Below, piece after piece: positions 5,667-53,723 of a stretch of DNA of 64,000 bases. The notes beneath the pieces were generated by a model. The model saw nothing but the letters and a program-made list of their open reading frames with translations. It did not search any database and was not told the DNA's origin. Source of the stretch: Thermoprotei archaeon. GTDB taxonomy: Archaea > Thermoproteota > Thermoprotei > Thermoproteales > B15-G16. The position numbers and the translations under genes are program-made. Numbering within the stretch: the stretch's first letter is position 1; every line of letters begins with the position of its first letter. The stretch is from assembly GCA_003649205.1 (NCBI GenBank), contig QMRC01000006.1, forward strand, positions 39,757-103,756, given 5' to 3'.

Positions 5667-7007
5667 GTGCACTTTATGAGATTTGGAGAGAAGCTAGGTG
5701 CGCTCTTAATGGTTGAAGCTGCATTTGCTGGAGCATACGTTAGCATTACTCGTGGTTTCTTCTACTTGATGATGGTTGAACGTGGTTATAGTGTTAGGGA
5801 TCTAGCTGTAGTTAGCCTAGTGGCTTCACTATCTATGGTGCTTGTGAGCTACCTACTGTACAGGAGACCTGAGCTACTTGAGAGAAGCGTCAAGGTTAAA
5901 CTCCTCACCATGCACATACTCGAGAGAATTTTCTGGTGCATTCTACCATTCATAGTGTTTAGATTTAGCTACATGTTTATCCTCCTAGCTTACTCACTAG
6001 CACAGGTCATTACTGTACCTGTGTGCGTGCTGCTGAATACTGTGTTACTCTCTCAGCTAAGTGAGGACGAGTTCAAGAGCGTTACTGGGTGGAGGAATTC
6101 CCTTGGCCTAATCTCGTCATTAAGTGCTCAGCTATTGGCGGTCCACGTGTTAGCATCTATGAGGAGTCCAGTACGGTACTACTACCTTTACACAATTGCT
6201 CTACTCCTTGGCTTCCTCTCATGGATTCCACTTACTATTGCTAGAGTTAGGGACTATGTGAGGAAGGTTAGTGGTTACTCTAGTGAGGAGGTTGAGGTTA
6301 TTGCTGGTACTACGTTCATATACTTGGTCCTTCTACTTGGATCAGCTAACATGCTCAGCATCCTCTGGGTACCATATCTGGTGAATGACCTAGGTGCACC
6401 GAGCTACCTAGTAGCTATCATGAACGCTGCTGGTACGATCTCTGGTTCCATATCGTCAGTTCTCTGGATTAGAGTTGTGTACAGGTACTATCTCTGTGGA
6501 CTAGTTATTGACTCAGCTGTACCAACCTTAGTCATGACATTACCACCAATATTCCATCCAGCTCTAGCTGGGCTCTCAGCTTTTGGCTTTACAGCAGGTA
6601 ACTTCATTGGCTACTTCATGTACTCGAAGATAGCGGAGAAAAGCGACCCCATAAAGAACTCCACTAGGTTAGCTGCTGCTAATGCACTGGGTCTCCTAAT
6701 ATCATTGATACCAGTTGCTATCTTGAATTTGAGCGCTAGGGATGGACTAATTCTCTGTAGTTGCTTGAAGGTACTAGCTCTCGTAATTGCTCTGCTGAGT
6801 ATTAAGGAAGTATCGCCACTTCCTGATCCACGTATCAGGACTTATAGTAAGGTAATCTTCGAGACAGGTATGTTCTCATACAGGTTAACGCTCGAATTCA
6901 CTACTCACTACGTACTATATACCTTGAAGATAGTAGCTGTTGTCCTTATAATGCTCTTCATGTACTTCATCTACAGGACAGTTACCATACTGATTAGTGG
7001 TGCGTAG
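5667..7007 (+). CDS. MFS-type multi-pass membrane transporter
   Basis: About 12 hydrophobic segments in 446 aa. Confidence 0.65.
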   Translation: MHFMRFGEKLGALLMVEAAFAGAYVSITRGFFYLMMVERGYSVRDLAVVSLVASLSMVLVSYLLYRRPELLERSVKVKLLTMHILERIFWCILPFIVFRFSYMFILLAYSLAQVITVPVCVLLNTVLLSQLSEDEFKSVTGWRNSLGLISSLSAQLLAVHVLASMRSPVRYYYLYTIALLLGFLSWIPLTIARVRDYVRKVSGYSSEEVEVIAGTTFIYLVLLLGSANMLSILWVPYLVNDLGAPSYLVAIMNAAGTISGSISSVLWIRVVYRYYLCGLVIDSAVPTLVMTLPPIFHPALAGLSAFGFTAGNFIGYFMYSKIAEKSDPIKNSTRLAAANALGLLISLIPVAILNLSARDGLILCSCLKVLALVIALLSIKEVSPLPDPRIRTYSKVIFETGMFSYRLTLEFTTHYVLYTLKIVAVVLIMLFMYFIYRTVTILISGA

Positions 7008-7668
7008 TATGGAGTTATTGAACATGAGCAATGGCGAGGTAGCATTTGAGAGAATAATTCAAGCATTTAAGTTGGCACTAAATGAATTGATAGCACTGGT
7101 ACCTGTAGTACTAGCATCTGTCCTCATAGTTGCACTCATGCTAGTAATTGCTAAGTACGTAGGTTCTCTTGTCAAGAGGATACTGAAGGTAGTTGGTCTA
7201 GATAGGATACTTGAGAGGTACGTAGGTACACCACCGATATCTGTCGAGAACTTCATCGTCGTATTCATACAGCTGGGCTTCGTAATACTTGGCGTAACAA
7301 TATCCGTGACAGTATTCGCACCTGAGTACCTAGCTACCTACAACATGTACCTATCCTATATACTGAGGTTGATGTCGGCTGTAGCACTCATAATAATAAC
7401 GCTCTTCTGGATAGAGGTACTAGTGAATAAGATTCGTGGTGAGAGCAAGGTAAAGGCATTTGCCTCACTAATAGCCTTCCTCCTAATACTCACCTTCATA
7501 ATCGACGTAACAGCACTATCTGAAAGCGTTAAGTCATCACTCGTATTCGGAATATCCCTTGGACTTGGATTGACAATAGGAGTATTCTCCATATGGTACT
7601 TCATGCATGAATACCTTGAGCACTACATCAGCAGAAAGCATGGAGAGAAAGAGGTCAGACAAGGCTGA
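6997..7668 (+). CDS. TM-helix-repeat membrane protein (MscS/CmpX-like); its 3' end and stop codon lie in the attL core
   Basis: LVPVVLASVLIV...GSLVKRILKVVGLDR pattern; about 5 TM segments. Confidence 0.65.
   Translation: MVRSMELLNMSNGEVAFERIIQAFKLALNELIALVPVVLASVLIVALMLVIAKYVGSLVKRILKVVGLDRILERYVGTPPISVENFIVVFIQLGFVILGVTISVTVFAPEYLATYNMYLSYILRLMSAVALIIITLFWIEVLVNKIRGESKVKAFASLIAFLLILTFIIDVTALSESVKSSLVFGISLGLGLTIGVFSIWYFMHEYLEHYISRKHGEKEVRQG
7652..7668 (+). repeat. attL core, 17-bp direct repeat AGGTCAGACAAGGCTGA
   Basis: Identical to 18439-18455; adjacent to the integrase; internal dyad TCAG-6nt-CTGA. Confidence 0.92.
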
Positions 7669-7678
7669 TTGAGTTCTC

Positions 7679-8842
7679 ATGGAAGAAATCACACCTGATA
7701 GCCCTATCTATCAGGTGAGAATAGGTCTCAATTCGATGGAGTTGCTGAAGCACTTTGAGAGTTGGTTAATTGCTCAGAACCTGTCCGTGGCTACGGTTAG
7801 GTCTCATGTTAGACAGGTTAGGTCTTTCCTCACGTGGTTTGGTAGGTCTATCGAGGATTTGAGTAGTTTCGATATTGCGTGTTACCTAGCTGAGTGCCGT
7901 AAGCGTGGTCTATCTGAGGCTAGTGTGAATCGCTATGCTTCTGCTCTCAAGAAATTCCTGAGGTTCCTAGCTAGTTACTTCAGAGCTAGGAGAAGGGTTG
8001 AGTTAGCTAATTACTTTGAGCAGGTGTACCGTGAGGTCAAGGTACCTAAGTACGACCTAGTTGAGGTCAGCATTAAGCGACACATGGAGCCTGATACAGC
8101 GAGGAAAGTCATAGACTTAATTCATGACCCCTACTGGAAGTGCTTTTTCGCTGTGCTGTATGAGACAGGTCTGAGGTTGAGGGAGCTTAGACAGGTCAAG
8201 GTAAGTGATGTTCACGAGAACAAGCACGGGTTCGAGATAGTTGTCAGAGATAGCAAGACACCTGAGGGAGTTAGGAAAGTGTACGTGGTTGAGTACTATC
8301 AGCTACTGAGGTACTACCTAGAGCATGTACGTCCGAGAGATAGCGAGTGGTTGTTCCCTGCTAGGAGAGACCCAAGGCAACCAATCTCCGAGAAAGCAAT
8401 CTACAGCTTTCTAAACCGCTTCAGAAAGCGGACAGGTATCGTGATTAGTCCACACCGCTTTAGACACGCTAGAGCTACTGAGCTTTACCGCAAGGGAGTA
8501 TCTGAGCAGTCGTTAATGAGGTTGTTTGGTTGGAGGACAAGGACAATGATTGATGTCTACAGTAAGCTTTCACAGCGAGATGTGGAGTCTGAGCTACTGA
8601 GCAAGGTCTACGGGCTATCCCCTGTAGAGAGTGAGAGGTCTCAGACTCGTAAGTGCCCGAGGTGTGGTGCTGAGGTAATACCCACAGCTAGGTACTGTCC
8701 ATACTGTGGTCTAGCCCTAGATATTGCGTCAGTATTAGGCAAAGAGGAACAGGTACGGAAATACGCAGAGCTCATTGAAGCACTGCTGAGGTACCTAGAG
8801 GAACACCCAGAGTACCTGTCGAAACTATTCTCAAGGACTTAA
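7679..8842 (+). CDS. Tyrosine integrase with C-terminal zinc ribbon (SNJ2/pNOB8-like architecture); start may be ATG 7736
   Basis: YETGLR (R), DSKT (K), HRFRH (HxxR), FGW, DVY (Y); C-terminal CPRCG...CPYCG. Confidence 0.93.
   Translation: MEEITPDSPIYQVRIGLNSMELLKHFESWLIAQNLSVATVRSHVRQVRSFLTWFGRSIEDLSSFDIACYLAECRKRGLSEASVNRYASALKKFLRFLASYFRARRRVELANYFEQVYREVKVPKYDLVEVSIKRHMEPDTARKVIDLIHDPYWKCFFAVLYETGLRLRELRQVKVSDVHENKHGFEIVVRDSKTPEGVRKVYVVEYYQLLRYYLEHVRPRDSEWLFPARRDPRQPISEKAIYSFLNRFRKRTGIVISPHRFRHARATELYRKGVSEQSLMRLFGWRTRTMIDVYSKLSQRDVESELLSKVYGLSPVESERSQTRKCPRCGAEVIPTARYCPYCGLALDIASVLGKEEQVRKYAELIEALLRYLEEHPEYLSKLFSRT
7692..7717. repeat. 10-bp inverted repeat CACCTGATAG/CTATCAGGTG beside attL
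   Basis: Perfect 10-bp arms with a 6-nt loop. Confidence 0.7.
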
Positions 8843-8995
8843 AAGCGGACATGAAACACAGGCAGAGAACACCAAGACCCGCCCTATAGTCCAGAGGAAA
8901 TGTTGCCTGAATTCAACAATAGTCTAATATGCGTATACGTGTGAGTGAACAGCGAGCGAGGTAATACACCACTTGAGGATGAATAGGGGCTCCTC

Positions 8996-9064
8996 GGGGG
9001 ATGATGAAGGGCTTAGCGGAGCGACCCCGCAAGGGGGTATGGCTGGACCAGGCTAGCTGACCCC
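8996..9064 (+). ncRNA. Provirus-encoded C/D-box-like sRNA candidate
   Basis: C box ATGATGA 9001-9007, D box CTGA 9057-9060, terminal GGGG/CCCC stem, internal CCCC-GCAA-GGGG hairpin; C'/D' boxes degenerate. Confidence 0.55.
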
Positions 9065-9078
9065 TACCCCCTCGCCCC

Positions 9079-9099
9079 GTGATAATGGGTTATTATCAC
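9079..9099. promoter_or_regulatory. Inverted repeat GTGATAAT-N5-ATTATCAC next to a TATA-like TATTTAAG
   Basis: Perfect 8-bp arms. Confidence 0.45.
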
Positions 9100-9186
9100 C
9101 AATATTTAAGTTTCTATGCAATTACAGTGAAATTACCATGGTTACTTTCTCGTGAGGGGGTTTAAGAACCCTTGATACGTCTTTGC

Positions 9187-9534
9187 TTAGCCTTTCTTTC
9201 TGATTAGTCCTCCTATTGCTCCTCCTATCATTGATAGGAATGCTGAGGCTAGCATCATGAATATTATTGCTAACCCTGCTAACCCACCTGCCCATGCTCC
9301 TAGGAATCCAGCTACTGAGAAGCCTAGTACTGTCAGCACTATTGCTGCTAGTATTCCTCCAATGATTCCACTGAGGAACCCTGCTGCTGCTCCTCTACCT
9401 GCTCCTCCTCCAGCTACTAGACCTGCTATGAAGCCTCCAAGTACTGGTGCGAAGATGTGTAGTATGGGTGAGAGTACGGCTGTAGCTAACATACCTGCAA
9501 AGACACCAGCTATGAAACTCAGTACACGACCCAT
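9187..9534 (-). CDS. Gly-rich small membrane protein (DUF5518-like)
   Basis: APVLGGFIAG...GAAAGFLSGIIGG...IGGAIGG pattern. Confidence 0.65.
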   Translation of the reverse strand: MGRVLSFIAGVFAGMLATAVLSPILHIFAPVLGGFIAGLVAGGGAGRGAAAGFLSGIIGGILAAIVLTVLGFSVAGFLGAWAGGLAGLAIIFMMLASAFLSMIGGAIGGLIRKKG

Positions 9535-9804
9535 GTAGGGAAAACCCCGAGGAAACCAGATACAGAGAGGACATAAAGCAGTTCAGAACATAGAGAGCAA
9601 TGAACCTAGCAACCTCAGAGGACAGAAAACAAGAACGCTCCTCCGGTCGGTGATGAATACTTGTACTTTTCTCTCGGTGACTTTCCTCAAGGCACTAAAT
9701 AAGAAATTGCTCTACTCTACAGTGGTATGGATTCTGAGGATTTTTGGATTGGTTTTCTCCTTGGTTACAGTACTGGTCTTATTCATGCGAAAAACTTAAC
9801 AACT

Positions 9805-10188
9805 TCAGAACTTGTCTTCAGGCTCATTTCCTGTTCCTTCATGCTCAGTGAGTTGTTGGGTACTAGACTTAATGAGTTCTTCAGCTCTTTGGAGAAGTTC
9901 AGCGACTTCACGACCCTTCTCAGTGAGCTCAATGTACCTAAGACCGTGCTTGGTATACGTCCTAACAAGACCGTACTGAAGACAGGTACTGAGGGCTCTG
10001 TAAGTACTGACAGGTGAGATACCGTATCTCTGAAGTTCTCTAATGTGCATAGCTCTACCTGTTTTGTGAAGAATTAGCAGCAATTTAATTCCCGGTCTAC
10101 CTAAGTCATCAGCTAGAGCTGACATTTTCCTCTGTCGTTTTCTGGTGATAAACCTAATAACGATATCTTCGAGCATTCGTAACCTCAT
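9805..10188 (-). CDS. Winged-helix DNA-binding protein (SSV1 F93-like); start may be 10125
   Basis: ISPVSTYRAL...GLV...RYIELTEKGREVAE wHTH signature. Confidence 0.75.
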   Translation of the reverse strand: MRLRMLEDIVIRFITRKRQRKMSALADDLGRPGIKLLLILHKTGRAMHIRELQRYGISPVSTYRALSTCLQYGLVRTYTKHGLRYIELTEKGREVAELLQRAEELIKSSTQQLTEHEGTGNEPEDKF

Positions 10189-10199
10189 TCTCAGTCTAT

Positions 10200-10286
10200 A
10201 CCCGATTTAGAGGTATCACGTAATAATATTACAACGCTATATCTCGAAACTGATAAATTGTTATAACGTTACAGAGTTGTAACAGG
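10200..10286. promoter_or_regulatory. Divergent promoter/operator region between the wHTH and RHH genes
   Basis: Dyads GTAATAATATTAC (10220-10232), GTTATAAC (10260-10267), GTTAC-N6-GTAAC (10268-10283). Confidence 0.55.
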
Positions 10287-10484
10287 GTGAGAGAGGTGCC
10301 TAAGAGTAAGGTGCCTATGGTCTTGGTTACCTTCCATATCCCGATACCACTCCTTAGAGAACTTGACAGGTTGGTGGAGGAGGGTAAGTTCCCGAGCAGG
10401 AGCGAGGCGATAAGGCACGCAATAATCCAACTCCTAGCTCGTGAGCGTCAAAGAACACAAATACACGAGGTGTTGGTAGCGTGA
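10287..10484 (+). CDS. Ribbon-helix-helix (CopG family) regulator
   Basis: VTFHIP..LLRELDRLVEEGKFPSRSEAIRHAI. Confidence 0.88.
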   Translation: MREVPKSKVPMVLVTFHIPIPLLRELDRLVEEGKFPSRSEAIRHAIIQLLARERQRTQIHEVLVA

Positions 10485-10729
10485 CCATTGTCAACTATGT
10501 CGAGGTAATTAGGAACATCATACTCAATGCTTTGAAGGAGCATGGCTACATTAGTGACCTAGAGCTTGTTAGGGCTGTCAAAGAGGCTACGGGACTCAGC
10601 TACGTAGACTTTGCTCCCATTCTTGAGCAGGTACTGAGTGAGCTAATGAGGTCTGGCGCAATTAGACGTGTAATGTCAGCAAGCAACCCGAGAAAGGTCG
10701 AGCATGGGTGGGAGCTGTGTACACAATAA
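10481..10729 (+). CDS. Small putative wHTH viral protein
   Basis: Overlapping stop/start (GTGA); LSELMRSGAIRR motif. Confidence 0.55.
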   Translation: MTIVNYVEVIRNIILNALKEHGYISDLELVRAVKEATGLSYVDFAPILEQVLSELMRSGAIRRVMSASNPRKVEHGWELCTQ

Positions 10730-11073
10730 AGCCGAATGGATTCTACCTCAGGTTGGTTTTGGATGCACTGAAGTACTGTGCTAGGACTGAAAGAGGCTCT
10801 ATTGTGTCTATTTACCCAAAGAAAGTCGCTAAGTTAAATGGGTACAGTGTTCGTGCATGTGGGAGGTATAGAGATGACAGTGAGGTAGAGAGGTCGCTAT
10901 CCCCTGCCGAGCTATCTATCATTAGGTACTGGCTGGATTACCTCTGGGTCAATGGGCTGTGTAGCCGTGAGAAGACTAGTCGTGACAGGTGGAACTACGT
11001 ATTCCCGAGGGAGAACTTGCCTAAGGCTATCAAGCTACTTGAGGAGGTGCTCAATGGTGAAGTACAAGATTGA
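10708..11073 (+). CDS. Hypothetical viral protein
   Basis: ORF within a tightly packed operon. Confidence 0.6.
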   Translation: MGAVYTIKPNGFYLRLVLDALKYCARTERGSIVSIYPKKVAKLNGYSVRACGRYRDDSEVERSLSPAELSIIRYWLDYLWVNGLCSREKTSRDRWNYVFPRENLPKAIKLLEEVLNGEVQD

Positions 11074-11194
11074 GGAGATAGTCAAGGAGTTGAAGGTTGC
11101 TCTCAGGGATAGAGAACTCAGAGAAGCATTGCTGAAGCACTTCTCCAACAACCCAAAGGCTCAAGCAATCATACTACTCCTGTCAGGTGAGTGA
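11054..11194 (+). CDS. Small hypothetical viral protein (MVKYKIEE...)
   Basis: GAGGAGGTG RBS before ATG 11054; stop overlaps the next start. Confidence 0.55.
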   Translation: MVKYKIEEIVKELKVALRDRELREALLKHFSNNPKAQAIILLLSGE

Positions 11195-11433
11195 GCATGA
11201 TTGAGCTGAGTTTCAAGACGAAGCGGGACTTCGATAACTGGGTTAAGGCGCTGTATGACTTCGGTTCGAATCACTGTGTTGAGCCTGTCGTCATCAAGCT
11301 AGATGGTAATGACCTCTACGACAGGTACATGGTCTGCATTGTGTACCATGCTTGGACTGAGGAAGGTGCTTACGCAGTGACCTGTCTAGCCCGCATAGTA
11401 GCGATAGTGTACAGGGAAGGTGAGCAGAAGTGA
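11191..11433 (+). CDS. Hypothetical viral protein
   Basis: GGTGA RBS; coupled starts and stops. Confidence 0.55.
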   Translation: MSMIELSFKTKRDFDNWVKALYDFGSNHCVEPVVIKLDGNDLYDRYMVCIVYHAWTEEGAYAVTCLARIVAIVYREGEQK

Positions 11434-11612
11434 GTCGCTACCACGGGCACAAGGTAACTATCACGATTATTGCGACAACAGGTTCTGGACTACCGACAGG
11501 TGAGCGAAAGAGCGATTTCATTAGATTCATGGTCGAGCAGGTACTGGAACGTGAGCTTTCTAAGAGGCTCCGTGATTTCCGTGTCCTCAAAGTCATGGTG
11601 AAGGTGATGTAG
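11430..11612 (+). CDS. Hypothetical viral protein
   Basis: GGTGA RBS; coupled start. Confidence 0.5.
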   Translation: MSRYHGHKVTITIIATTGSGLPTGERKSDFIRFMVEQVLERELSKRLRDFRVLKVMVKVM

Positions 11613-11691
11613 ATGGTTCCTGCTACTACTACCTATTCTATTTCTAGTAATTCGTTTAGACAAAATACGCGGGACATTAAACGCGGTTCAG

Positions 11692-11816
11692 ATTGGAACC
11701 AATGTTCCCTCTCAGAGGAATCATTGAAACCAATCATTGGAATCAATGTCAGTGGTATGATTGGAACCAATGATTGGAACCAATCATTCCACTCGCTTAG
11801 TCTCATTGGTTCCAAA
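11692..11816. repeat. Cluster of six ATTGGAACCAAT-type dyad repeats
   Basis: Copies at 11692, 11723 (1 mismatch), 11736 (1 mismatch), 11760, 11773 and inverted at 11805. Confidence 0.85.
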
Positions 11817-11827
11817 AACGGAGAGAG

Positions 11828-12151
11828 GTGTTGAGTATCCCCCGAATAACTATCTACATCCATGAGAGCGATTGGGAAAAGCTGACGAAAATAGCTGAGC
11901 AGAGAGGACAATCAATGTACAGCATAGTGAAGCAAGTAGTACTTGAGTTCCTGAAGCTAAGTAACCCAATTGTTGCTCATGGTAAGCTTTCTAGGGATTT
12001 AGCTACCTGTCGGAGCATTATCAAGCGATTTGGTTGGTGTGCTCTCTGCATACATGCTGAGGTTGTTGGTGATAGGTTAGTCTGCAGAAAGACAGGCAAA
12101 GTCATAGAAAAACCCATATGGCAATGCCCACACCCCATACCCAAGGTGTAA
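11828..12151 (+). CDS. RHH protein with C-terminal Cys/His zinc-binding motif
   Basis: RITIYI...WEKLTKIAEQRGQSMYSIVK; CALC.H...C...C. Confidence 0.7.
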   Translation: MLSIPRITIYIHESDWEKLTKIAEQRGQSMYSIVKQVVLEFLKLSNPIVAHGKLSRDLATCRSIIKRFGWCALCIHAEVVGDRLVCRKTGKVIEKPIWQCPHPIPKV

Positions 12152-12160
12152 ATCATGCTT

Positions 12161-12184
12161 TTTACACAGCTGCAGCTGTGTAAA
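12161..12184. repeat. Perfect 24-bp palindrome TTTACACAGCTGCAGCTGTGTAAA
   Basis: Read directly; further GTGTAAA-like half-sites at 12146, 12190 and 12207. Confidence 0.85.
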
Positions 12185-12227
12185 TGATTTTTACTCACTG
12201 ACAGGTGCGTAAATTTGGTGAGAATTC

Positions 12228-12596
12228 ATGTCCGAGATGGAGAAGTTAATTAGGAACCTGAACATACTGCGAAACTACTTCAGCAAGGTACCACCTGAAG
12301 TCATTGAGGCTCTCATGTACTTTGAGGATAGGTTCTTCACTGAGAAATACCATGTTGTTCGCTCTAAGACAGGTAGGGAGTATCGCTACAGGTACCTCTA
12401 CATCAGGTTGAATGACTACAGGACACTAGGTTACTTCAGGATAAATGATAGCAATGATGAATTGCTGCTACACGAAATTAGGCAGGTCAAGGCATTTTCA
12501 CAAGCACTACTACAGTACATAGCAATGCTCAGACACAGCAAACTAGCAAACCTCACCAAAATTTACTCAAGGACCTTGAGTAAAAACAACCAATAA
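12228..12596 (+). CDS. Hypothetical viral protein
   Basis: GGTGA RBS; basic/aromatic KTGREYRYRYLY segment. Confidence 0.6.
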   Translation: MSEMEKLIRNLNILRNYFSKVPPEVIEALMYFEDRFFTEKYHVVRSKTGREYRYRYLYIRLNDYRTLGYFRINDSNDELLLHEIRQVKAFSQALLQYIAMLRHSKLANLTKIYSRTLSKNNQ

Positions 12597-12657
12597 CACA
12601 TCAGCAATTGGGGAAATTGAATTGGGGTGATGCCCCCTGAACCTCAAGGTCTATTTC

Positions 12658-13644
12658 GTGAAGAAAACTAGGCAATACGAGGTCTATGAGGGCTCTAGGA
12701 GAATCCTCAGGACTAAGGTACATGCAAAAGCTCACGAGTACCTATCGAAACAAATCAATTCAAGTTTTGAGTTCTACTTTGTTTGTTGCAATAGGGAGCA
12801 CCTGTTAGCATGTTCACGTTTCTTTGAACTCACAGGTCGCAGGCTCAATGTGTTGATTAGTTACAACTTCATACGTGACAGGTACCTCACACAGGTGCTT
12901 CAGCAAGTTAGACCACACCTAAGCAAAGTCATGATTGATTCAGGTGCTTTCCATGTACTTATCCGCAAGGTACCCCTGGAAAAGTTCCAGAGCTACATAG
13001 GTGAGTACGTGAATTGGCTCAACAACCACACAGAGCTTTACGACTACTGTGTCGCACCTGACGTACCCTGTGATGAACGACCCGCAGAAAAAATCCAGAA
13101 ACTACCAAACAGGTACAAGATAGAGCTAACCATAGCTAACACAGTTCACTGGATAGATAGGTTGACAGACCCTCGCAAGGCTGTGGCTGTAGTTCAGGGT
13201 TATTTCGTGAATGAGTACCTGCTCTGTGCTGAGAAGCTGAAAGAACTCGGGCTCACAACAGCAAAGACAGGTGTCGGCTCTTTATGTGTCAGGAAATACA
13301 GTAGACAACAAGCACGTGAAGTACCACAGATACTAGCTAGCATAAGACAGGTCTTACCGTCATGGGTGAAACTTCACGCATTCGGTCTTCAGCTAGATTT
13401 CTTACCGACCTGTCTCAAGTACCTACACAGCTCAGACAGTGCCTCATGGCAATTAAGTTACTCAAAGTTCAATAGGATACGAATAGCGAACCTGTCGACA
13501 GGTCAAACAGTTGAGCTTGATTTAGTTAGTCATGGCGGAGCGAGGAAAAAGAACCTAGACCAAGTCACGATATACACATACAACCTCTTAGCCTACTGGA
13601 ATAGAGTTCAGCAACTAACGAGACAGGCAGCACAGACAAAATAA
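12658..13644 (+). CDS. TGT/DpdA-like guanine transglycosylase (putative 7-deazaguanine DNA insertion enzyme)
   Basis: Ordered TGT-fold motifs IDSGAF, APDVP, VVQG, GVGSL, LHAFG, SSDSASW. Confidence 0.75.
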   Translation: MKKTRQYEVYEGSRRILRTKVHAKAHEYLSKQINSSFEFYFVCCNREHLLACSRFFELTGRRLNVLISYNFIRDRYLTQVLQQVRPHLSKVMIDSGAFHVLIRKVPLEKFQSYIGEYVNWLNNHTELYDYCVAPDVPCDERPAEKIQKLPNRYKIELTIANTVHWIDRLTDPRKAVAVVQGYFVNEYLLCAEKLKELGLTTAKTGVGSLCVRKYSRQQAREVPQILASIRQVLPSWVKLHAFGLQLDFLPTCLKYLHSSDSASWQLSYSKFNRIRIANLSTGQTVELDLVSHGGARKKNLDQVTIYTYNLLAYWNRVQQLTRQAAQTK

Positions 13645-13663
13645 AGTAAGTGTTGAAAACTGC

Positions 13664-14428
13664 TCAAGTCCCCATGTTCTCTATCTCATGTCCTGTAGGG
13701 TATAGGTTCAGTTTCTTTATGTACTTGTACACTGTTTGACGTGAAACACCGAGTGCTCTAGCTATATCACTTATACTGTAACCTTTCTTCAACATATCCT
13801 CAATAGTCTTCTCCCTATTAGCAGTCTGGATAGCTACCTGTAAGTCCATGAACACCTTCTCAACAAAGAGCCTCCTCATTTCCTGATACTTCACATAGAT
13901 GTCGTGGTCTAGCTTAGGCACGAAGGTATCTACACCAATTTCCTTCACCACGAACTTACCCGTAGGAGTCCACGTAAACCTGTAGATGTGTGCCTCTCTC
14001 TCACCTTGCTTACTCTTCCTAATGTGTACATGTATCCAACACATCTCACGTAGTGCTCTTAAGAGCAGGCGATAGGTAGGTACCGTGAATATGACAGCAC
14101 CTGTCACAGTCCTAGCAACCTCAAGGAACTTTACAAATAGCTGACGGTCTTCTTTAAGAAAGTCATATTTGCTTATCCACACACCAGCATCATCATAGCA
14201 CAGACACTTAACACGCTTACGATACCTAAGACACTCCCTAATAATTGGGAAAGACTGCTTAACATCGAAGAATACGTAGTTGAGAGCAGTCTCCCTACAA
14301 TACAGCTCACTCAAGACCTTGATAGCGTAGGTAGTCTTACCAACCCCTTGCTGACCCTGAATAACAATAACCTCAAATCCATTGTTCCTGAAAGCACGCT
14401 CAATTATCTTAGTTAGGACAAACGGCAT
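13664..14428 (-). CDS. P-loop ATPase similar to fusellovirus B251, with C-terminal HTH
   Basis: GQQGVGKTTYAIKV, YDDAGVWISKY, ARTVTGAVIFTVP resemble SSV1 B251 as I recall it; SISDIARALGVSRQTVYKY HTH. Confidence 0.8.
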   Translation of the reverse strand: MPFVLTKIIERAFRNNGFEVIVIQGQQGVGKTTYAIKVLSELYCRETALNYVFFDVKQSFPIIRECLRYRKRVKCLCYDDAGVWISKYDFLKEDRQLFVKFLEVARTVTGAVIFTVPTYRLLLRALREMCWIHVHIRKSKQGEREAHIYRFTWTPTGKFVVKEIGVDTFVPKLDHDIYVKYQEMRRLFVEKVFMDLQVAIQTANREKTIEDMLKKGYSISDIARALGVSRQTVYKYIKKLNLYPTGHEIENMGT

Positions 14429-14431
14429 ACC

Positions 14432-14734
14432 TCACTCCTCCTCAATCTCCTCCTCACGACCAACAGGTATGAACCTCTTACGACCCATTACATGCGTTAT
14501 AGTCCTGAAGAACTTAGCAAACGATAGCAGAGCTGAGTAACCACGACCGCCCTCAGCTAACCTCAACTCAAGGTAAGGTATGATGAATGAGTCTCTCAAG
14601 TCCTGAAGGTTGTACCTGTCGCATATGAAGAGCAACGTAGCTATCTTACGAGCCTCACCATACTGCAACCTAGTTAAGCGAAGTATGTTCCCCGAGGTAA
14701 GAGCCTCAATTAGTTCCTCTGACATGAGCCTCAC
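14432..14734 (-). CDS. Hypothetical viral protein
   Basis: GAGGTGA RBS; operonic. Confidence 0.6.
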   Translation of the reverse strand: MRLMSEELIEALTSGNILRLTRLQYGEARKIATLLFICDRYNLQDLRDSFIIPYLELRLAEGGRGYSALLSFAKFFRTITHVMGRKRFIPVGREEEIEEE

Positions 14735-14735
14735 C

Positions 14736-15191
14736 TCACAGGTGAATGATACCGAACTTCACGAGCATGAACATGATGTACGCACCTATGATTAACCCAC
14801 AAATCAGAGCAATGATGACAGGAGTAGCCCTAACAGGTACCTTCTCCGTTAGCAGAGCCCTCAGTACCTGTCCCTTGATAATCTGCGATATAGTGTCACT
14901 ATCAATGTAGGGGTCTTGATATTGACCACAGAAGTACACTATCTTTCTGACAGGTGCCCACACCTTCACGTCTCTAAACACCCTAACCCTACCCCCAGCA
15001 AGCACCAGCTTCCTCTCCGGATTGAGCAATTTAGCAGGCGTAATCTCGACATGCTTATCGTTCACGATAATAGCTATGTGCTTTGACCTGAAGATACGTC
15101 CTTCAGGTCTCGCTAGGAACATCATGATGAATGTGACAGGTATAGCTACGCAGTATATTGCGACTAGGATAGGGCTCAACATAGGGCTCAC
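14736..15191 (-). CDS. Viral membrane protein (N- and C-terminal TM)
   Basis: Two hydrophobic termini; operonic. Confidence 0.65.
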   Translation of the reverse strand: MSPMLSPILVAIYCVAIPVTFIMMFLARPEGRIFRSKHIAIIVNDKHVEITPAKLLNPERKLVLAGGRVRVFRDVKVWAPVRKIVYFCGQYQDPYIDSDTISQIIKGQVLRALLTEKVPVRATPVIIALICGLIIGAYIMFMLVKFGIIHL

Positions 15192-15713
15192 CTACAGAGT
15201 CTTCTCAGCTTCAGCAATGAGCTTGTTCAGGACCTGCTCAACCCTCTCAATTCGCTTAGCTAACTCACTGAGCCTATCCTCACTATGATTTGAGCCTAGC
15301 TTACTCACGTCGATAGCGTCTAGGAATATCGAGAGCGGAACAGCAATAGCGTACTCAAACCTCTCAACCTTACCACTCTGCTCGACAGGTATCGTAACTT
15401 GCTGAGCCTCCCTCTCCCTCACCAAAATCAGAACACGGTCAGGATTCCTAACCGCAGAGACAGGTAGCTTAGACAGGTACGGTCTCCTACCTGTCTCACT
15501 TTCGGACGTGTACGGTCTACCTCTCTGAAAGTGAAGTACTAAGCACAGAGCACCGAGACTAGCTAGAGCAATGAAACCAACCCACTTCAGCGTAAAGACC
15601 GCTCCAGAGGATATCTTAGCAGTCAGTGGTGACAGGTATGGGTCATACCAAATCAAGTACATGACTGCACCTGTGAGCAGTGCTGTGCTCAGGTAAAGGA
15701 AACGAGTACTCAC
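15192..15713 (-). CDS. Viral membrane protein with C-terminal coiled coil
   Basis: Two N-terminal TM segments; GAGGTGG RBS. Confidence 0.65.
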   Translation of the reverse strand: MSTRFLYLSTALLTGAVMYLIWYDPYLSPLTAKISSGAVFTLKWVGFIALASLGALCLVLHFQRGRPYTSESETGRRPYLSKLPVSAVRNPDRVLILVREREAQQVTIPVEQSGKVERFEYAIAVPLSIFLDAIDVSKLGSNHSEDRLSELAKRIERVEQVLNKLIAEAEKTL

Positions 15714-15838
15714 TTACAACCCACCTCACTTATGTAAACTTTTTCACAAAAACCATAAGGTCAACTTGCGAGATATCCTGAATAATCACTGAACACGGAG
15801 CAAACCTGAGACAGGTCGAAAAGTAGGAGGTGAAGTAG

Positions 15839-16198
15839 GTGGACATAGACCTAGGGAACATCCTGAGAGCTGTCCTGTTTGTAGCCCTAATACCCACGCT
15901 ATTCGGAGCTATAGCTGGATTCGTTGACCCTTCACTACAACCAATGATACAGCCCCTACTCAGCCTAGTACCAATGCTCATAATCCTCAACCTAATCAAA
16001 GACCTGTTCTCAGAAGCTGGAGCAAAGGGATTCGTCAAGATATTCGATATCCTACTGCTCGTAATGATGTTACCTGTCCTAATCAACATGTTCGGAGCAG
16101 CCACAGGACAAAACGAAGCACTAGCACAAGTCTCAGGACTCCTACAGCAACTCCTACCAATCCTACTATTCATCAAGCTCATCGAAGAGATGGTTTAG
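15839..16198 (+). CDS. Putative major capsid protein with two tandem SSV1-VP1-like helical hairpins
   Basis: Strong RBS AGGAGGTGA; repeats VALIPTL...LLSLVPMLII and VMMLPVL...LLQQLLPILL. Confidence 0.62.
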   Translation: MDIDLGNILRAVLFVALIPTLFGAIAGFVDPSLQPMIQPLLSLVPMLIILNLIKDLFSEAGAKGFVKIFDILLLVMMLPVLINMFGAATGQNEALAQVSGLLQQLLPILLFIKLIEEMV

Positions 16199-16219
16199 TT
16201 CCTTCGAGGTGATTAAGCT

Positions 16220-17974
16220 ATGAAACCCAAGCCCCTTTTTGCAATCTTAACAGTACTCACTCTAGTGCTCATAGTGGCGGTTGTTAATGCTGGTGAGTAC
16301 ACGCTATACGATGTACTTCAGTACGCTCATGAGGTACATGTCTTCGGAAAGACATACAACACAGCAAGTTATGGCACCACAACTTACTCTGGGACATGGA
16401 ATCTAACTGATGTTGTGTCGGGGAGGAAAGTTACATTTGGCTACAGGCAATACCTACAAGACCCAGATAGCTCCGACACAATCGTTATTGTGTTTCAGAA
16501 GAATACAGCTATCGAGGTCGGTACTGGTAGCGGGAAGTGTGTCTACGGTAAACCTGTCGTAATTACGTATGATACTGAAACAGGAAGGAGGACTATGTAC
16601 TACATTGATGGCGGTGAACTGAAGAAAGTAGGTGAATTCACTGGTGGTACCTACGTCTACTGGAACGGTACAAAGTTATGTCAAGCACTACGTTTCAAGG
16701 ACTGGTTAGATTTCCACAAGTTCTTTAACAACACATGCATGTTAATACTCCCAGACATCACGACATACGACTACAGGATAATTGATGGGTCTTCCGAGCT
16801 ATTAAAGGATAAGTGTGGTGGAAATGGTTTCCACACCCTCATTATCTTCGGTGGTGAGTACCTAAACAAATCGATAATTGTTGAAGTTGCTGGAGCCTAC
16901 GGAATCAAGAACATAACGCTCACTACAGAACTCAACACAGTCTACACGATTGACCCAAAGCACTTGAAGTTAGCTGTGTTCACAGGTAACCTAACGGAGA
17001 CGCTATCGAGGGCGAGCCAGAGCACAGAGGAAAGTACACAGGAAAGTACAACTAACACGACAAACGAGACCTCAACACCAACCACAGCACCAGAGACGAA
17101 GGTGTACAAGGTCACGATACATGTCTACGATGTGGATACCAATGAGGAAATCACATCAGCAATGGTTAAGGCGGGTTGGTTCACGAAGACAGGTTCACCT
17201 GTTACCTTTGAGTTCAAGTGGAAGGAACCACAGTGGTTACCTATCTCAGCTAGTGCTACAGGTTACAAGTCCTTCAGCACAACTATCTGGGTCGATACCA
17301 ACATGACGCTGTGGGTAGGGCTAGTCAAGGAAACCTCGAACAGCACCGAGCAATACAGTAAATTACTGAGGCTCGGTGTCTCAATTGCGGGTGTTGGTTC
17401 AACTCCATATTGGGCTCAGGAAAACAAGACATTCACAGAGTGGGCTAATGAGGTTGAGCAGTTACTATCCTCATCACAGGCTCCTGAGGTTAAGTATGAG
17501 ACTACGTGGTATGGTTTGAAGATAGTCGCTGTGAAGGTACCTTCAGGTAGACCAGCATACGGAGTAGCGACTATTGTCGCTGTTAAGAAAGGATTTCTCG
17601 GTACCCTAACATGGGAAGAAGAACTCGGTACTGTGCAAATAGTGAATGGTACGGGTTATTTCCATGTTGACTACGAGACAATCAAGAACAAGCTACAACT
17701 CAAAGAGTGGGGAGGGGAGTACTTCTACGGTTTCAAGATTGTATGGAAGGTCGGTGACCTAGACCCAGAGGTCGAGGTTGTACCTGTCAAGAATACATGG
17801 ACGCCTGTCTACATTCAGGTGAATGAGCAGACAGGAACCTACTCAGCAACAACACTACCACAGACAGCATTAACGAATGTCGGAACATCACTAACACAGA
17901 TGCTCATAACCCTACTACCACTGTTCATCATATTCGCACTCATTGGAGCTATTACAGGTCGTAGAAGGCGATAG
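16220..17974 (+). CDS. Secreted, membrane-anchored virion spike/adsorption glycoprotein
   Basis: Signal peptide, many N-x-S/T sites, Thr/Glu-rich linker, C-terminal TM followed by RRRR. Confidence 0.7.
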   Translation: MKPKPLFAILTVLTLVLIVAVVNAGEYTLYDVLQYAHEVHVFGKTYNTASYGTTTYSGTWNLTDVVSGRKVTFGYRQYLQDPDSSDTIVIVFQKNTAIEVGTGSGKCVYGKPVVITYDTETGRRTMYYIDGGELKKVGEFTGGTYVYWNGTKLCQALRFKDWLDFHKFFNNTCMLILPDITTYDYRIIDGSSELLKDKCGGNGFHTLIIFGGEYLNKSIIVEVAGAYGIKNITLTTELNTVYTIDPKHLKLAVFTGNLTETLSRASQSTEESTQESTTNTTNETSTPTTAPETKVYKVTIHVYDVDTNEEITSAMVKAGWFTKTGSPVTFEFKWKEPQWLPISASATGYKSFSTTIWVDTNMTLWVGLVKETSNSTEQYSKLLRLGVSIAGVGSTPYWAQENKTFTEWANEVEQLLSSSQAPEVKYETTWYGLKIVAVKVPSGRPAYGVATIVAVKKGFLGTLTWEEELGTVQIVNGTGYFHVDYETIKNKLQLKEWGGEYFYGFKIVWKVGDLDPEVEVVPVKNTWTPVYIQVNEQTGTYSATTLPQTALTNVGTSLTQMLITLLPLFIIFALIGAITGRRRR

Positions 17975-17977
17975 AGC

Positions 17978-18280
17978 ATGACTAACCGCTACGTCTACCT
18001 TGGAAAGAAAGTGAAGGACATAGGCAAGAAAGGACTAGACCGACCAAGCGAGTACCTAGCAATAGCGAGAGCTATAGCACAAGACTACAAGGCTGGTAGG
18101 ATAAGTAAAAAGACTGCTCACGGACGCTTTTTACTACTTTACAGGCTCGTGGATAAGAATAGCAAGCTGAAGGTACCTAAGTCAGTTAAGGAACGTCTCA
18201 AACGCAAGATTAAGGAAATCTGGATGAAGACCATTGGAGGTGGGAAGGTGGCTCGAAAGAGGAAAAGAAAGAAAAGGTAG
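17978..18280 (+). CDS. Highly basic putative virion DNA-binding protein
   Basis: Very high K/R content; last gene of the structural operon. Confidence 0.6.
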   Translation: MTNRYVYLGKKVKDIGKKGLDRPSEYLAIARAIAQDYKAGRISKKTAHGRFLLLYRLVDKNSKLKVPKSVKERLKRKIKEIWMKTIGGGKVARKRKRKKR

Positions 18281-18438
18281 GCTCAAGTCACATCACCTGT
18301 ATGTCGCTCTAACTACCTAATTTCTTGAGCTTGCTCTAGTCCTCAAGAATTCTTTACACATGTCTCATGTCCTGCGACCTGTCACCTAGACCTGAACTAG
18401 CTCAAGACAGAAGGTGGGTGACTTCTCTCAACTTATTT

Positions 18439-18455
18439 AGGTCAGACAAGGCTGA
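18439..18455 (+). repeat. attR core, 17-bp direct repeat
   Basis: Identical to 7652-7668. Confidence 0.92.
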
Positions 18456-18490
18456 ATTCTTCACGGATCTGCCTCGCCTGGGCTCATCAT
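18442..18490 (-). ncRNA. C/D-box guide sRNA (predicted 16S rRNA helix-27 region); integration target of the provirus
   Basis: ATGATGA-gcccaggcgagg-CAGA-tcc-GTGAAGA-attcagccttgt-CTGA; guides complement conserved archaeal 16S CGCCUGGG and GCAAGGCUGAA. Confidence 0.88.
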
Positions 18491-18534
18491 AAAGCAGCCA
18501 ATTACCTACTCTCGAGACCCTCTAATAAAGATCA

Positions 18535-19293
18535 CTAATCAGCAATCACATACCTAACCTCACCAGTGAAGCACCACTCACTCTCATCACTACGTTTGAG
18601 ATCCACATCTACACACTTCTGCTGAAGATACAGTATTAGTTCTCGACTCGGGATTGCCTCACTAGGTAGTGAATCAAGAACACGTCTATACTGTACAGCT
18701 ATGATTCCATCGAAGTACTTACTTAGCTCCTCAACTGACTCAACAACCTTACTCTCTGGAATTAACTCAATACCGAAGAGGATGTAAGCAATGAAGCTAA
18801 CCTCATCACCATAAACTTCACGACATTTCTCCCTAAGAGCATTCAACCTCACAATCTCACTCTGAGGAATACCCTTACACAACACAGCATTTCTCAGGTA
18901 CTCATCCCAAACCTCAATACCAACCCTAATAACGAGCCTACTAGGTTTAAGCAGCTCAAGCACCTGTCTCACAGAGTCAAAACTTAGGTACTCAGGTCTA
19001 GACTCAATATCCACAATTCTACCACAGGTAAATCTAGAGAGCTTGAGCACGGTATCCAGAGGTAGCTCAAAGAATGAACCACCATTAAATACAGTAATTC
19101 TCTCAATACTAAACCTCAGGGTAGCATCTTCCAGAAGCGACAATATCTTGTCATTTGTCTGAATTACATCGGATAGTGAGTTACCTGCCTCAAGGAAGAA
19201 GGGACAGAAGACACATCTACCCCAACGACATCTAAATCCCTTGAGTATCACGATAGCTCTCTTCCTAGATCTCTCAATCACAACACCTAGCAC
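18535..19293 (-). CDS. Radical SAM protein, RaSEA (archaeosine lyase, TIGR01210)-like
   Basis: CRWGRCVFC, FNGGSFF, DIESRPEY, VGIE motifs. Confidence 0.72.
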   Translation of the reverse strand: MLGVVIERSRKRAIVILKGFRCRWGRCVFCPFFLEAGNSLSDVIQTNDKILSLLEDATLRFSIERITVFNGGSFFELPLDTVLKLSRFTCGRIVDIESRPEYLSFDSVRQVLELLKPSRLVIRVGIEVWDEYLRNAVLCKGIPQSEIVRLNALREKCREVYGDEVSFIAYILFGIELIPESKVVESVEELSKYFDGIIAVQYRRVLDSLPSEAIPSRELILYLQQKCVDVDLKRSDESEWCFTGEVRYVIAD

Positions 19294-19990
19294 TGAGAAT
19301 CTCCCTCAAACCACTAATTAACTTACTCAAACTAGTTGGAGTTATGAGTATGAGATCTGGATCATCGTAGTAACCACCTAGAGATACCTCATCAAGCTCA
19401 TGAGGAGGTACCTCATTAACTCTCGCAGCTAAGTTCTTAACCTCAATACCTAGCATGGAACAAGCACGCTCTAGAGCAGCATAGCTATCTGAATCCCACC
19501 TTAGATACGACACAAAGCACTCATAATAACTCCTAAATCTACTCAGGAACAATCTCAATCTCTCACAGGTAACCTCCCTATAGAGTACCTTCACTTCACT
19601 AGTTTCATACTTAGGATTCCAGTCATACGCACAATAGGGGTAGTACTCTTCAAGCTCTCTCGGTACGATACCGGCATTCGTTATAATGACTTGATGAATA
19701 TCCTCGTAGTACCTACCTAACGACTTCAAAGCCCTAATTATGAAGTAGTGTATGTAGGATTGAGAGTACGGCTTACCGTAAGCACATGGTAGGAAGAGAC
19801 AGACTCTATACCTCTTCCTTGGCTTCCACTCAGTTAGTAATCTCTTAAAACCCTCTTCAAAGAATGGGTGCTTAAGGTACCTAAGACCTACACCTCTGAG
19901 GAATTCCCTACCATCACCAGACCAGATAAGTTCGTGACCATCCCAAATAACGTACAAGCTAGATCCCTCAAGAAGTTCTCCACAAACCAA
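19274..19990 (-). CDS. Stand-alone DUF5591 (ArcS catalytic-domain-like) protein
   Basis: FLPCAYGKPYSQSYIH, GIVPRELE..YP...YD motifs. Confidence 0.78.
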   Translation of the reverse strand: MVCGELLEGSSLYVIWDGHELIWSGDGREFLRGVGLRYLKHPFFEEGFKRLLTEWKPRKRYRVCLFLPCAYGKPYSQSYIHYFIIRALKSLGRYYEDIHQVIITNAGIVPRELEEYYPYCAYDWNPKYETSEVKVLYREVTCERLRLFLSRFRSYYECFVSYLRWDSDSYAALERACSMLGIEVKNLAARVNEVPPHELDEVSLGGYYDDPDLILITPTSLSKLISGLREILSARCCD

Positions 19991-53387: not shown

Positions 53388-53597
53388 ATGGCCAAGCTCA
53401 AATGCCAACACTGTGGCTACGAATTCGAGATCACTGAAGATGATATCGATGTAGATGCCTCTGTTGAGGAATTATCAGGAGAAGTAGCTACGATAAGTCT
53501 AACAGTTAGAGTACCTTGCCCCAAGTGTGGTAGAAGGGTACTGTACTATGTTGACACAATAGAAGTACCGATCAAACCAGGTAAAGTGGTTAGATAA
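53388..53597 (+). CDS. Small zinc-ribbon protein
   Basis: CQHCG...CPKCG. Confidence 0.65.
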   Translation: MAKLKCQHCGYEFEITEDDIDVDASVEELSGEVATISLTVRVPCPKCGRRVLYYVDTIEVPIKPGKVVR

Positions 53598-53723
53598 GTC
53601 ACCAAGCAAATCCCGCTAAGTAAGGAGAAAGCTTGATTGTTTAAAGGTGTGCAGTTAGTTGATTCAAAATGGAGTTGAGGGAGGAGAAAAAGTGGGTTGA
53701 GTTATTACCCGTATCATTCTTTA

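Follow-up and report, generated by a model that had tools for sequence, protein, structure and literature searches.

Fuselloviruses (SSV1, SSV2, SSV6, ASV1, SMF1) are temperate viruses of Sulfolobales hosts with small circular double-stranded DNA genomes; they integrate at tRNA targets by means of an SSV-type integrase whose gene contains the att site and is split on integration, the suicidal arrangement that the available text of PMC5861418 and PMC8371274 defines alongside the classical one. Thalassapleoviruses (AvPV1, ThalV2, GacPV1; Baquero et al. 2024, PMC10919331) include pleomorphic viruses of Archaeoglobi, and PAV1 (Pyrococcus abyssi virus 1) and APSV1 (Aeropyrum pernix spindle-shaped virus 1) are spindle-shaped. 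The element that we compare with them here is 10.8 kb long and occupies positions 7652-18455 of a stretch of 64,000 nucleotides (the 64-kb window; positions 39,757-103,756 of contig QMRC01000006.1, assembly GCA_003649205.1). The host is an uncultured Thermoproteales archaeon from a hot environment, represented by a metagenome-assembled genome (MAG) of 2.07 Mb in 31 contigs, 93.8% complete; an oxidoreductase encoded in the flanks is 87% identical to that of its nearest named relative, likewise an uncultured Thermoproteales archaeon. The element is genuine and undescribed; it looks intact and, on an evolutionary scale, has been mobile. We think it probable, while short of confident, that it stands for a new lineage of fusellovirus-related temperate viruses outside any described family, a reading that draws on one strong link, the ATPase, and on several weak links that are mutually consistent. 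No spindle-shaped provirus of Thermoproteales is described in the literature searched, as judged by title and abstract.

Integration at a 17-bp core

The features at the element's ends are as follows.

7652-7668: attL, 17-nt core, coinciding with the final 17 nt (the stop codon among them) of a host gene for a 223-aa MscS-like membrane protein (6997-7668)
7679-8842, plus strand: integrase, 387 aa in one open frame, a classical (non-suicidal) XerA-like tyrosine integrase with a C-terminal CPRCG...YCPYCG zinc ribbon, starting 11 nt from attL
18439-18455: attR, 17-nt core
18441-18493, minus strand: candidate host C/D-box small RNA (sRNA; Rfam sR5, 20.7 bits against a gathering score of 40, E 0.31)

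The element is a 10,787-bp unit inserted site-specifically at a 17-bp core, beside its own intact classical tyrosine integrase gene. The core, AGGTCAGACAAGGCTGA, occurs exactly twice in the window, at the two att positions, and none of 100 dinucleotide-preserving shuffles of the window held two or more matches to it (expected count 0.01). Empty sites were found in two places. G001, a genome of the same genus, carries just one core, with the left flank (92% identity) directly on one side of it and the right flank (90%) on the other, and in run X2, a hydrothermal-vent metagenome from an independent study, a 1,152-nt contig joins position 7651 to 18439, skipping 10,787 bases and with 17 letters common at the joint. 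These two sites confirm the boundaries to the base, and the intact att pair proposed in a preliminary description of the locus, which had been made from the letters alone, is thereby borne out.

At the core the 3' ends of the membrane-protein gene and of the candidate sRNA gene meet, and both are restored by the copy that the element brings. The MscS-like name of the former derives from weak matches (Pfam MS_channel_1st_1, 7.5e-05; NF033912, 1.3e-05). The candidate sRNA reads, in order, C box AUGAUGA, 12-nt guide, CAGA, 3 nt, GUGAAGA, 12-nt guide and D box CUGA; the att core contains both its D box and its D guide, and its boxes, guides and 12-nt spacing are kept at the empty site of G001. No rRNA or tRNA target of the guides was found, in a MAG that lacks LSU rRNA. 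The complement of the D' guide is present in 35 of the order's 62 genomes (two foreign loci that were inspected are neither rRNA nor sRNA homologues) and that of the D guide in 26 of the 62. There are no tRNA genes in the window. The element may target an sRNA gene in the way that others target tRNA genes; a C/D-box sRNA overlapped by an att core would then rank with tRNA genes as a place to integrate, and an uncommon one.

The G+C content of the element is not distinct from that of its flanks. Megablast of its DNA against 50,697 phage records returned no match, so that it was not found to be near-identical to any described virus—the finding that the preliminary description had named as fatal to its claim of an apparently complete, probably undescribed element—and that claim stands. 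No CRISPR spacers against the element were found in its own assembly, where arrays may be unassembled. The only 20-mers common to the element and the rest of that assembly are in an integrase remnant, described below, and at one place on contig C12, in ordinary sequence with no repeats around it.

A gene block resembling that of fuselloviruses

The strongest tie to described viruses lies in an operon on the minus strand, between the early genes and a divergent late operon.

13664-14428, minus strand: B251-type ('DnaA-like') P-loop ATPase, 254 aa; an additional HTH_7 domain is at its C-terminus (residues 205-239)
14432-14734, minus strand: p100, soluble, placed like the gene next upstream of B251 in fuselloviruses (SMF1_0007 / ASV1_C155 / SSV6_B149)
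14736-15191, minus strand: p151, with N- and C-terminal transmembrane helices, at the position of fusellovirus B277 / ASV1_C263
15192-15713, minus strand: p173, membrane protein with an N-terminal hydrophobic region, for which no relatives were found
15714-15838: divergent intergenic region between the late operons, 125 nt, with one GACAGGT

An ATPase with membrane proteins had been claimed for 13664-15713; the ATPase is of the P-loop kind and two membrane proteins accompany it, and the assignment of the ATPase to the B251 type proved sound. The protein matches phrog_5484, the PHROG family of fusellovirus B251, at 5e-41, and 72 records of the phage collection, most of them fuselloviruses, the others bicaudaviruses, Aeropyrum viruses and Archaeoglobi pleomorphic viruses. 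Its best viral match is SMF1 (34.9% identity, 2e-31), within a range of 30-35% identity to SSV, ASV and SMF proteins; the NTPases ThalV2 gp07 and GacPV1 gp07 are matched at 26-28% identity (5e-9 and 2e-12). The C-terminal HTH_7 lies outside the part aligned to fuselloviruses and is covered in ThalV2 (query residues 5-247) and in two G226 contigs. Members of the family were found in 25 of 401 sampled Thermoproteota genomes at E <= 1e-5 and in 12 of them at E <= 1e-17, a sporadic distribution such as is expected of proviruses. Close relatives were found neither among genome contigs nor among viral contigs; a search of 5.8 billion proteins returned the query alone, and among 62 genomes of the order the element's own was the only match.

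The order and direction of p151, p100 and the ATPase agree with those of the fusellovirus block, and both upstream genes are weakly matched by the core genes expected at their positions. Sequences from three fuselloviruses and three proviruses went into a profile of the gene upstream of B251, against which p100 gave an hhalign score of 27.0 (34% probability, 82 columns), compared with 9.9 for the reversed sequence and at most 16.1 for seven other element proteins; p151 scored 28.9 against a B277-type profile (25% probability, 101 columns), where its reversed control gave 19.0 and one other reversed control 19.8. By these profile scores the resemblance of p100 to the gene upstream of B251 may be called fair, and that of p151 to the B277-type gene weak.

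Another contig of the same MAG, C29 (locus L010, 1-2991), encodes a second B251-type ATPase of 351 aa (phrog_5484, 3e-25), a 129-aa membrane protein (phrog_36287, 1e-12) and a small protein of 95 aa whose two hydrophobic helices are accompanied by a Ser/Thr loop. The contig is probably one piece of a further fusellovirus-like genome. The 95-aa protein was tried as a VP1/VP3 candidate and set aside, having no match to the fusellovirus VP1/VP3 profile (score 15.8).

Candidate virion proteins

Three genes make up the divergent plus-strand operon.

15839-16198, plus strand: mcp119, four-helix hydrophobic protein of two tandem two-helix units, candidate major virion protein
16220-17974, plus strand: spike584, 584 aa, with a signal-peptide-like N-terminus, a C-terminal transmembrane helix and an RRRR tail, candidate receptor-binding/envelope glycoprotein
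17978-18280, plus strand: basic100, 100 aa of which 34 are Lys or Arg, of the PAV1 ORF89 / APSV1 gp31 family with an added Lys/Arg tail, candidate DNA-binding protein

The hydrophobic, anchored and basic proteins of the structural operon proposed earlier are thus present, the term 'spike' being an argument from architecture. Neither Pfam nor PHROG matches mcp119, and an Atlas search gave nothing; ten distant relatives (27-39% identity) were found among 1.84 billion representatives, one from a Thermofilum sp. MAG and the others from short metagenomic contigs. In the 401 genomes of the phylum nine match at E <= 0.01, all marginally (E >= 0.001) except the element's own. The halves of mcp119 are mutually homologous by hhalign (99.3%, E 3e-20, score 95), a probability inflated by composition, since the reversed control reached 95% (score 42). 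An AF2 model made from the family alignment has four helices (pLDDT 81).

The first of these halves weakly resembles the VP1-type capsid proteins of fuselloviruses, with profile scores of 26.7 for SSV1, 29.7 for SSV2, 25.7 for ASV1, 21.8 for SSV6 and 32.2 for SMF1_22; SMF1_23 gave 19.8. The alignments to the five VP1-type sequences are of 20-57 columns, and those of the four top scorers span both helices (46-57 columns). The background came from the host: 262 of its open reading frames (ORFs) were eligible, having at least two hydrophobic segments, and 220 of these, drawn at random, averaged 10.9 (SD 2.4) with a top score of 23.5, none reaching 25. In a profile search of 177,635 PDB sequences VP1 of SSV19 (7xdi) ranked second, at a non-significant E of 3.6. 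The two-helix VP1-type capsid protein of the preliminary description therefore survives in part, as a weak similarity at profile level; mcp119 is a tandem duplication, not a simple two-helix VP1.

The large anchored protein, spike584, carries 12 N-x-S/T sequons and a Ser/Thr-rich linker at about residues 262-292. It has no family match and no match among PDB sequences; the protein search returned the query alone, and an Atlas search gave a best feature score of 0.77 with TM at most 0.29. basic100 is matched by PAV1 ORF89 (57% over 60 aa, 2e-9) and APSV1 gp31 (51% over 45 aa, 1e-4), and the PAV1 gene lies directly after a block of large lectin-like and membrane proteins. The basic structural protein that had been claimed thus has homologues in these two viruses, and no detectable homology to SSV1 VP2. 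Its family is widespread in MAGs of hyperthermophiles: ten loci were confirmed of 260 candidate stretches, from Methanocaldococcus, Thermococcus, Aenigmatarchaeota, Desulfurococcaceae, Acidilobaceae, Thermoproteales and an Asgard MAG.

The integrase and its pleomorphic-virus relatives

The 387-aa integrase is a single frame in which Phage_integrase (3.4e-24), SAM-like N-domain (1.8e-13) and zinc-ribbon (1e-07) matches are found; the best NCBIfam model is archaeal XerA (NF040815, 7e-33, below its cut-off). R166, H259, R262, W285 and Y294, as well as the ribbon motif KCPRCG...PT..YC..C.L.LD, are invariant in a three-way alignment with the integrases of ThalV2 and GacPV1, and K193 is the candidate catalytic lysine. 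An unbroken enzyme with all its catalytic residues had been proposed, and one that stays whole where that of fuselloviruses does not; the second statement holds, and so does the first with K193 as a putative residue only. With att outside the gene, 11 nt upstream, and the gene intact, the arrangement is classical, not SSV-type suicidal. The likening of the ribbon to SNJ2-type enzymes found no support: the available text of PMC5861418 and PMC8371274 has no mention of zinc, and among viral relatives of full length the ribbon is shared by ThalV2 and GacPV1 alone. PMC8371274 describes the SNJ2 integrase clade as restricted to Halobacteria. ThalV2 and GacPV1 are the two that reach at least 80% coverage among the 208 records of the phage collection matched at E <= 1e-5, with 26% identity at about 1e-22. 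By this sequence kinship the integrase is drawn from the pool used by thalassapleoviruses.

The same kinship raises the prospect that the element is a pleolipovirus-like provirus, akin to Thalassapleoviridae, whose virion would be a pleomorphic vesicle with spike584 as fusogen and mcp119 as an internal membrane protein, the ATPase being the conserved NTPase of those viruses. Beyond the integrase with its ribbon, the match of the ATPase to the ThalV2 and GacPV1 NTPases, extending in ThalV2 over the C-terminal HTH, would fit; so would gene order, for in ThalV2 and GacPV1 a small membrane protein of four segments is followed by a protein of about 500 aa with a signal peptide and a C-terminal anchor, the architecture of mcp119 and spike584, a module described as a hallmark of thalassapleoviruses in the available text of PMC10919331. 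The spindle shape of the putative virion is itself reached by analogy, and a layout of small membrane protein plus anchored glycoprotein would suit pleolipovirus-like viruses also.

Sequence comparison of mcp119 and spike584 themselves gave no such correspondence. The mcp119 profile does not match the VP3-like proteins of thalassapleoviruses (probabilities of 0.2% and 0.1%, figures of low power as the templates were single sequences), and spike584 has no sequence similarity to their VP4-like proteins, with which its signal-plus-anchor architecture is compatible. The ATPase is much closer to fuselloviruses (2e-31 versus 2e-12), p100 and p151 match the positional fusellovirus genes and not thalassapleovirus gp05 or gp06, basic100 ties the element to the spindle-shaped PAV1 and APSV1, and family scans of the element's proteins found no Rep gene. 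Nothing else recognisable as a replication initiator appeared in these scans beyond the 'DnaA-like' label of the B251 family, as the preliminary description had stated. We regard a pleolipovirus-like provirus as decidedly unlikely.

Contig C2 of the same MAG carries at 53505-54785 (locus L013, about 9500-10800) a decayed integrase remnant among host genes, 80-89% identical to the element's integrase gene in nucleotide patches and with a longest ORF of 87 aa, which points to an earlier visit by a related element.

Relatives of the element and the case for a virus

Returning to a fusellovirus-related virus, we fetched 12 Thermoproteota loci around B251-like ATPases and counted basic100 homologues at E <= 0.01. 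Three of the 12 have one: L046 (42% identity, 1.5e-13), L044 (39%), from an Acidilobaceae MAG, and L047, where it is weaker and the layout less clear than in the other two. In L044 and L046 the homologue directly follows a protein of 862 or 822 aa with signal peptide and C-terminal anchor, before which stand small hydrophobic VP1-like proteins, and in the divergent operon membrane proteins and one protein of 128 aa accompany the ATPase; L046_128 matches SMF1_0007 at 2e-5 and L046_224 matches ASV1_C263 at 2e-4. The hydrophobic protein of L044 (6502-7119, minus strand; 205 aa) is made of three tandem units of helix, Thr-rich loop and 'IPLFVL' helix, and that of L046 (13105-13350; 81 aa) of one VP1-like unit; against mcp119 profiles they score 29.1 and 25.3. 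With one unit in L046, two in mcp119 and three in L044, these proteins form a copy-number series of VP1-like units.

Another, independent locus, L023, is a metagenome contig of 8130 bases whose 127-nt terminal overlap indicates a complete circular element of about 8.0 kb. It has an mcp119 homologue directly before a 654-aa anchored protein, and encodes also a small integrase (phrog_9208, 2e-38), an RHH protein and an unclassified AAA ATPase dissimilar to the element's; only the mcp gene matches clearly. It may be among the smallest virus-like genomes of its kind.

Closer kin were seen in run X2, which besides the empty site holds diverged pieces of the element (93-99% identity; depth 0-15 against 44-71 for the host flanks), so that relatives circulate in another vent community. 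In one variant there, 11715-14462 (second RHH gene, p122, DpdA-like gene and ATPase) is replaced by 20 other letters, a sign of modular variation within the family.

A number of results weigh against a fusellovirus-related virus. Of 20 element proteins compared by BLAST with SSV1 and SMF1 only the ATPase matches, the same searches giving no homologue of the VP4/C792 end-filament, zinc-finger, A82, C84 or VP2 proteins, and the signal of p151 is only modestly above its controls. The integrase is not of SSV type, and its best viral relatives are the pleomorphic viruses that share the ATPase as well. The VP1 similarity of mcp119 is weak, and short hydrophobic helices can converge; its first half does not match four fusellovirus VP3 sequences, which have long loops (scores 9-13), and the whole protein is matched neither by PAV1 ORF121 and the small proteins of APSV1 nor, by Foldseek at E <= 0.001, by any entry of PDB or BFVD. 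A single-sequence AF2 model of spike584 is unusable (pLDDT 35), and its sole detectable relative, the 654-aa protein of L023, is a weak one (23% over 165 aa, E 0.003). Members of the basic100 family are also carried by a Thermococcus nautili plasmid, and their other contexts are varied and not those of fuselloviruses. Neither an attP joint or excised circle nor an attB joint was seen among the contigs of run X1, which cannot show rare forms; no virion or transcript was seen, the data being contigs.

Part of this would be expected of an integrative element that is not a virus, be it plasmid-like, vesicle-borne, or a domesticated or defective remnant, in which the membrane proteins would not be virion proteins. 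Whether the structural ORFs model as virion proteins, on which the preliminary description had let its reading depend, came out unevenly: mcp119 models as four helices with no significant Foldseek match and spike584 poorly, so that a capsid fold is not demonstrated. Such an element would suit equally the want of excision or particle evidence in the contigs, the plasmid and other contexts of basic100 relatives, the differing gene content of the X2 variants, one of them without 11715-14462, and a size of 10.8 kb, below that of the fusellovirus records fetched (14.8 to 24.2 kb). It would fit less well with an ATPase whose B251-type matches in the phage collection are almost only in viruses, with the recurrence in several lineages of a two-operon layout comprising a large secreted anchored protein and VP1-like proteins, or with a sequence that is 87% coding by gene list with all 19-20 ORFs intact; and family scans found no conjugation or plasmid replication genes. 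On this balance a non-viral element is, in our judgement, rather unlikely, and we continue with the fusellovirus-related virus.

Early genes, a DpdA-like enzyme and a repeated heptamer

Between the integrase and the ATPase operon lie the following.

8843-9186: non-coding stretch, 344 nt, locally G+C-rich
9187-9534, minus strand: Gly-rich membrane protein, 115 aa (DUF5518, 3.7e-10)
9805-10188, minus strand: winged-helix (wHTH) regulator, 127 aa, divergent from the early cluster (phrog_12817, 1.5e-06; weak Pfam wHTH matches)
10287-10484, plus strand: CopG-type ribbon-helix-helix (RHH) regulator, 65 aa (RHH_1, 4.1e-09)
10481-11834, plus strand: run of small ORFs (82, 121, 80, 80, 60 and 73 aa) that have no family assignment
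11828-12151, plus strand: second RHH protein, 107 aa, Cys-rich in its C-terminal half (RHH_1, 7.5e-04, just under cut-off)
12228-12596, plus strand: p122, 122-aa ORF, with a weak TscT match (0.0032) only
12658-13644, plus strand: DpdA-like TGT-fold transglycosylase, 328 aa (PF23859, 27.0 bits, equal to the cut-off; phrog_1279, 4.1e-11)

The regulator and early cluster reported earlier at 9805-12596 is there, with its two RHH proteins on the plus strand and the winged-helix protein on the minus strand. The earlier gene listing had left out the DpdA-like gene. The non-coding stretch at 8843-9186 has no RNA family match, and its fold is no better than those of shuffled sequences (z-score 0.21).

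The DpdA-like protein is 30.5% identical to a TGT of an archaeal Caudoviricetes virus (5e-15); it reaches 31 bits against the NCBIfam DpdA equivalog NF041059, whose cut-off is 200, and has no match among PDB sequences at E <= 0.1. These family matches mark it as a candidate for modifying DNA with 7-deazaguanines. Family scans of the element's proteins found no preQ0-synthesis genes, so that the use of host preQ0 is a deduction, and a literature search found no paper that joins fuselloviruses and DpdA. Directly outside attR, on the minus strand at 18535-19990, are a RaSEA-like radical SAM gene (TIGR01210, 2.7e-11, below cut-off) and an overlapping gene of 238 aa; this pair suggests that the host probably makes preQ0-derived bases, which bears on the DpdA-like gene.

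A second peculiarity is the heptamer GACAGGT. Counting its complement as well, 38 of the 46 copies in the window are in the element, where they are found in every reading frame and run both ways with respect to the genes. The density, 3.5 per kb, is about 20 times the genome average of 0.18 per kb; first-order Markov simulations of the element gave a mean of 2.1 copies and a maximum of 8 (500 runs), no other 10.8-kb interval of the assembly comes near its count, and ten related or reference loci have 0-2 copies each. Two ideas offer themselves, namely that the heptamers might be binding sites for a protein of the element or target sites of modification. A DpdA-like gene together with a 20-fold enriched heptamer, within a provirus of 10.8 kb, makes a compact system for asking about 7-deazaguanines in small archaeal viruses.

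A tentative model

Taking the element as a fusellovirus-related virus, its RHH and winged-helix regulators would control the life-cycle switch, the integrase would excise a circular genome, and the DpdA-like enzyme might modify viral DNA with host preQ0 as a protection against restriction. The late genes would form two divergent operons: one, p173-p151-p100-ATPase, equivalent to the fusellovirus block that ends in B251, would handle the genome or act in assembly at the membrane, and the other would encode the virion, in which mcp119 would be the capsid protein, built of two VP1-like hairpins, spike584 an anchored and probably glycosylated adsorption protein, and basic100 the DNA-binding protein.

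The model may be pushed further, to a proposal that we put forward as a long shot: that the element represents a new virus family of Thermoproteales linking Fuselloviridae (through the ATPase block and the VP1-like unit), PAV1 and APSV1 (through the ORF89 family) and Thalassapleoviridae (through the integrase), with a capsid made of a covalently duplicated VP1 hairpin, DNA marked with host preQ0 by its self-encoded DpdA, and the 38 GACAGGT copies as recognition sites, either for modification or for packaging by the HTH of the ATPase. Were it true, the relatives with one or three units would show spindle capsid proteins growing by tandem repetition. If the element is a virus, a further host order joins those of the fusellovirus-related assemblage; it would also show that spindle-shaped and pleomorphic viruses of archaea trade integration modules freely, and would offer a natural series of one-, two- and three-unit VP1-like proteins for the study of lipid-like capsid lattices.

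Comparison with known systems

PAV1 and APSV1 resemble the element in having a basic100 homologue, placed in PAV1 as it is here; PAV1 has no other gene in common with it by BLAST, and as noted above the small proteins of the two viruses are unlike mcp119. The proviruses at L044, L046 and L047 are alike in two-operon layout, with BLAST matches to the ATPase and basic100 only. They differ in that the VP1-like proteins of L044 and L046 have one or three units with Thr-rich loops, that GACAGGT is not enriched in any of the three (1-2 copies per 20 kb), and that no DpdA match turned up in them.

The Thalassapleoviridae share with the element the integrase family, including the CPRCG...YC..C ribbon, and an att site beside int; a related NTPase; a small multi-helix membrane protein followed by a large anchored one; and a similar genome size class (13-18 kb). 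They differ from it in their VP3- and VP4-like proteins, to which no similarity is detectable, in their rolling-circle Rep, of which the element has none, and in a host of a different phylum.

With the Fuselloviridae the element has in common the B251-type ATPase, the two genes upstream of it (weakly matched, at the same positions), helical units with a weak resemblance to VP1 and RHH/CopG regulators, and, to judge from its genes, probably the temperate lifestyle and small circular double-stranded DNA genome. In contrast to their SSV-type integrase, tRNA target and Sulfolobales hosts, its integrase is classical and intact, its target is not a tRNA gene and its host belongs to Thermoproteales; and it has features of its own in the fused tandem capsid-like protein, the extra C-terminal HTH of the ATPase and the DpdA-like gene.

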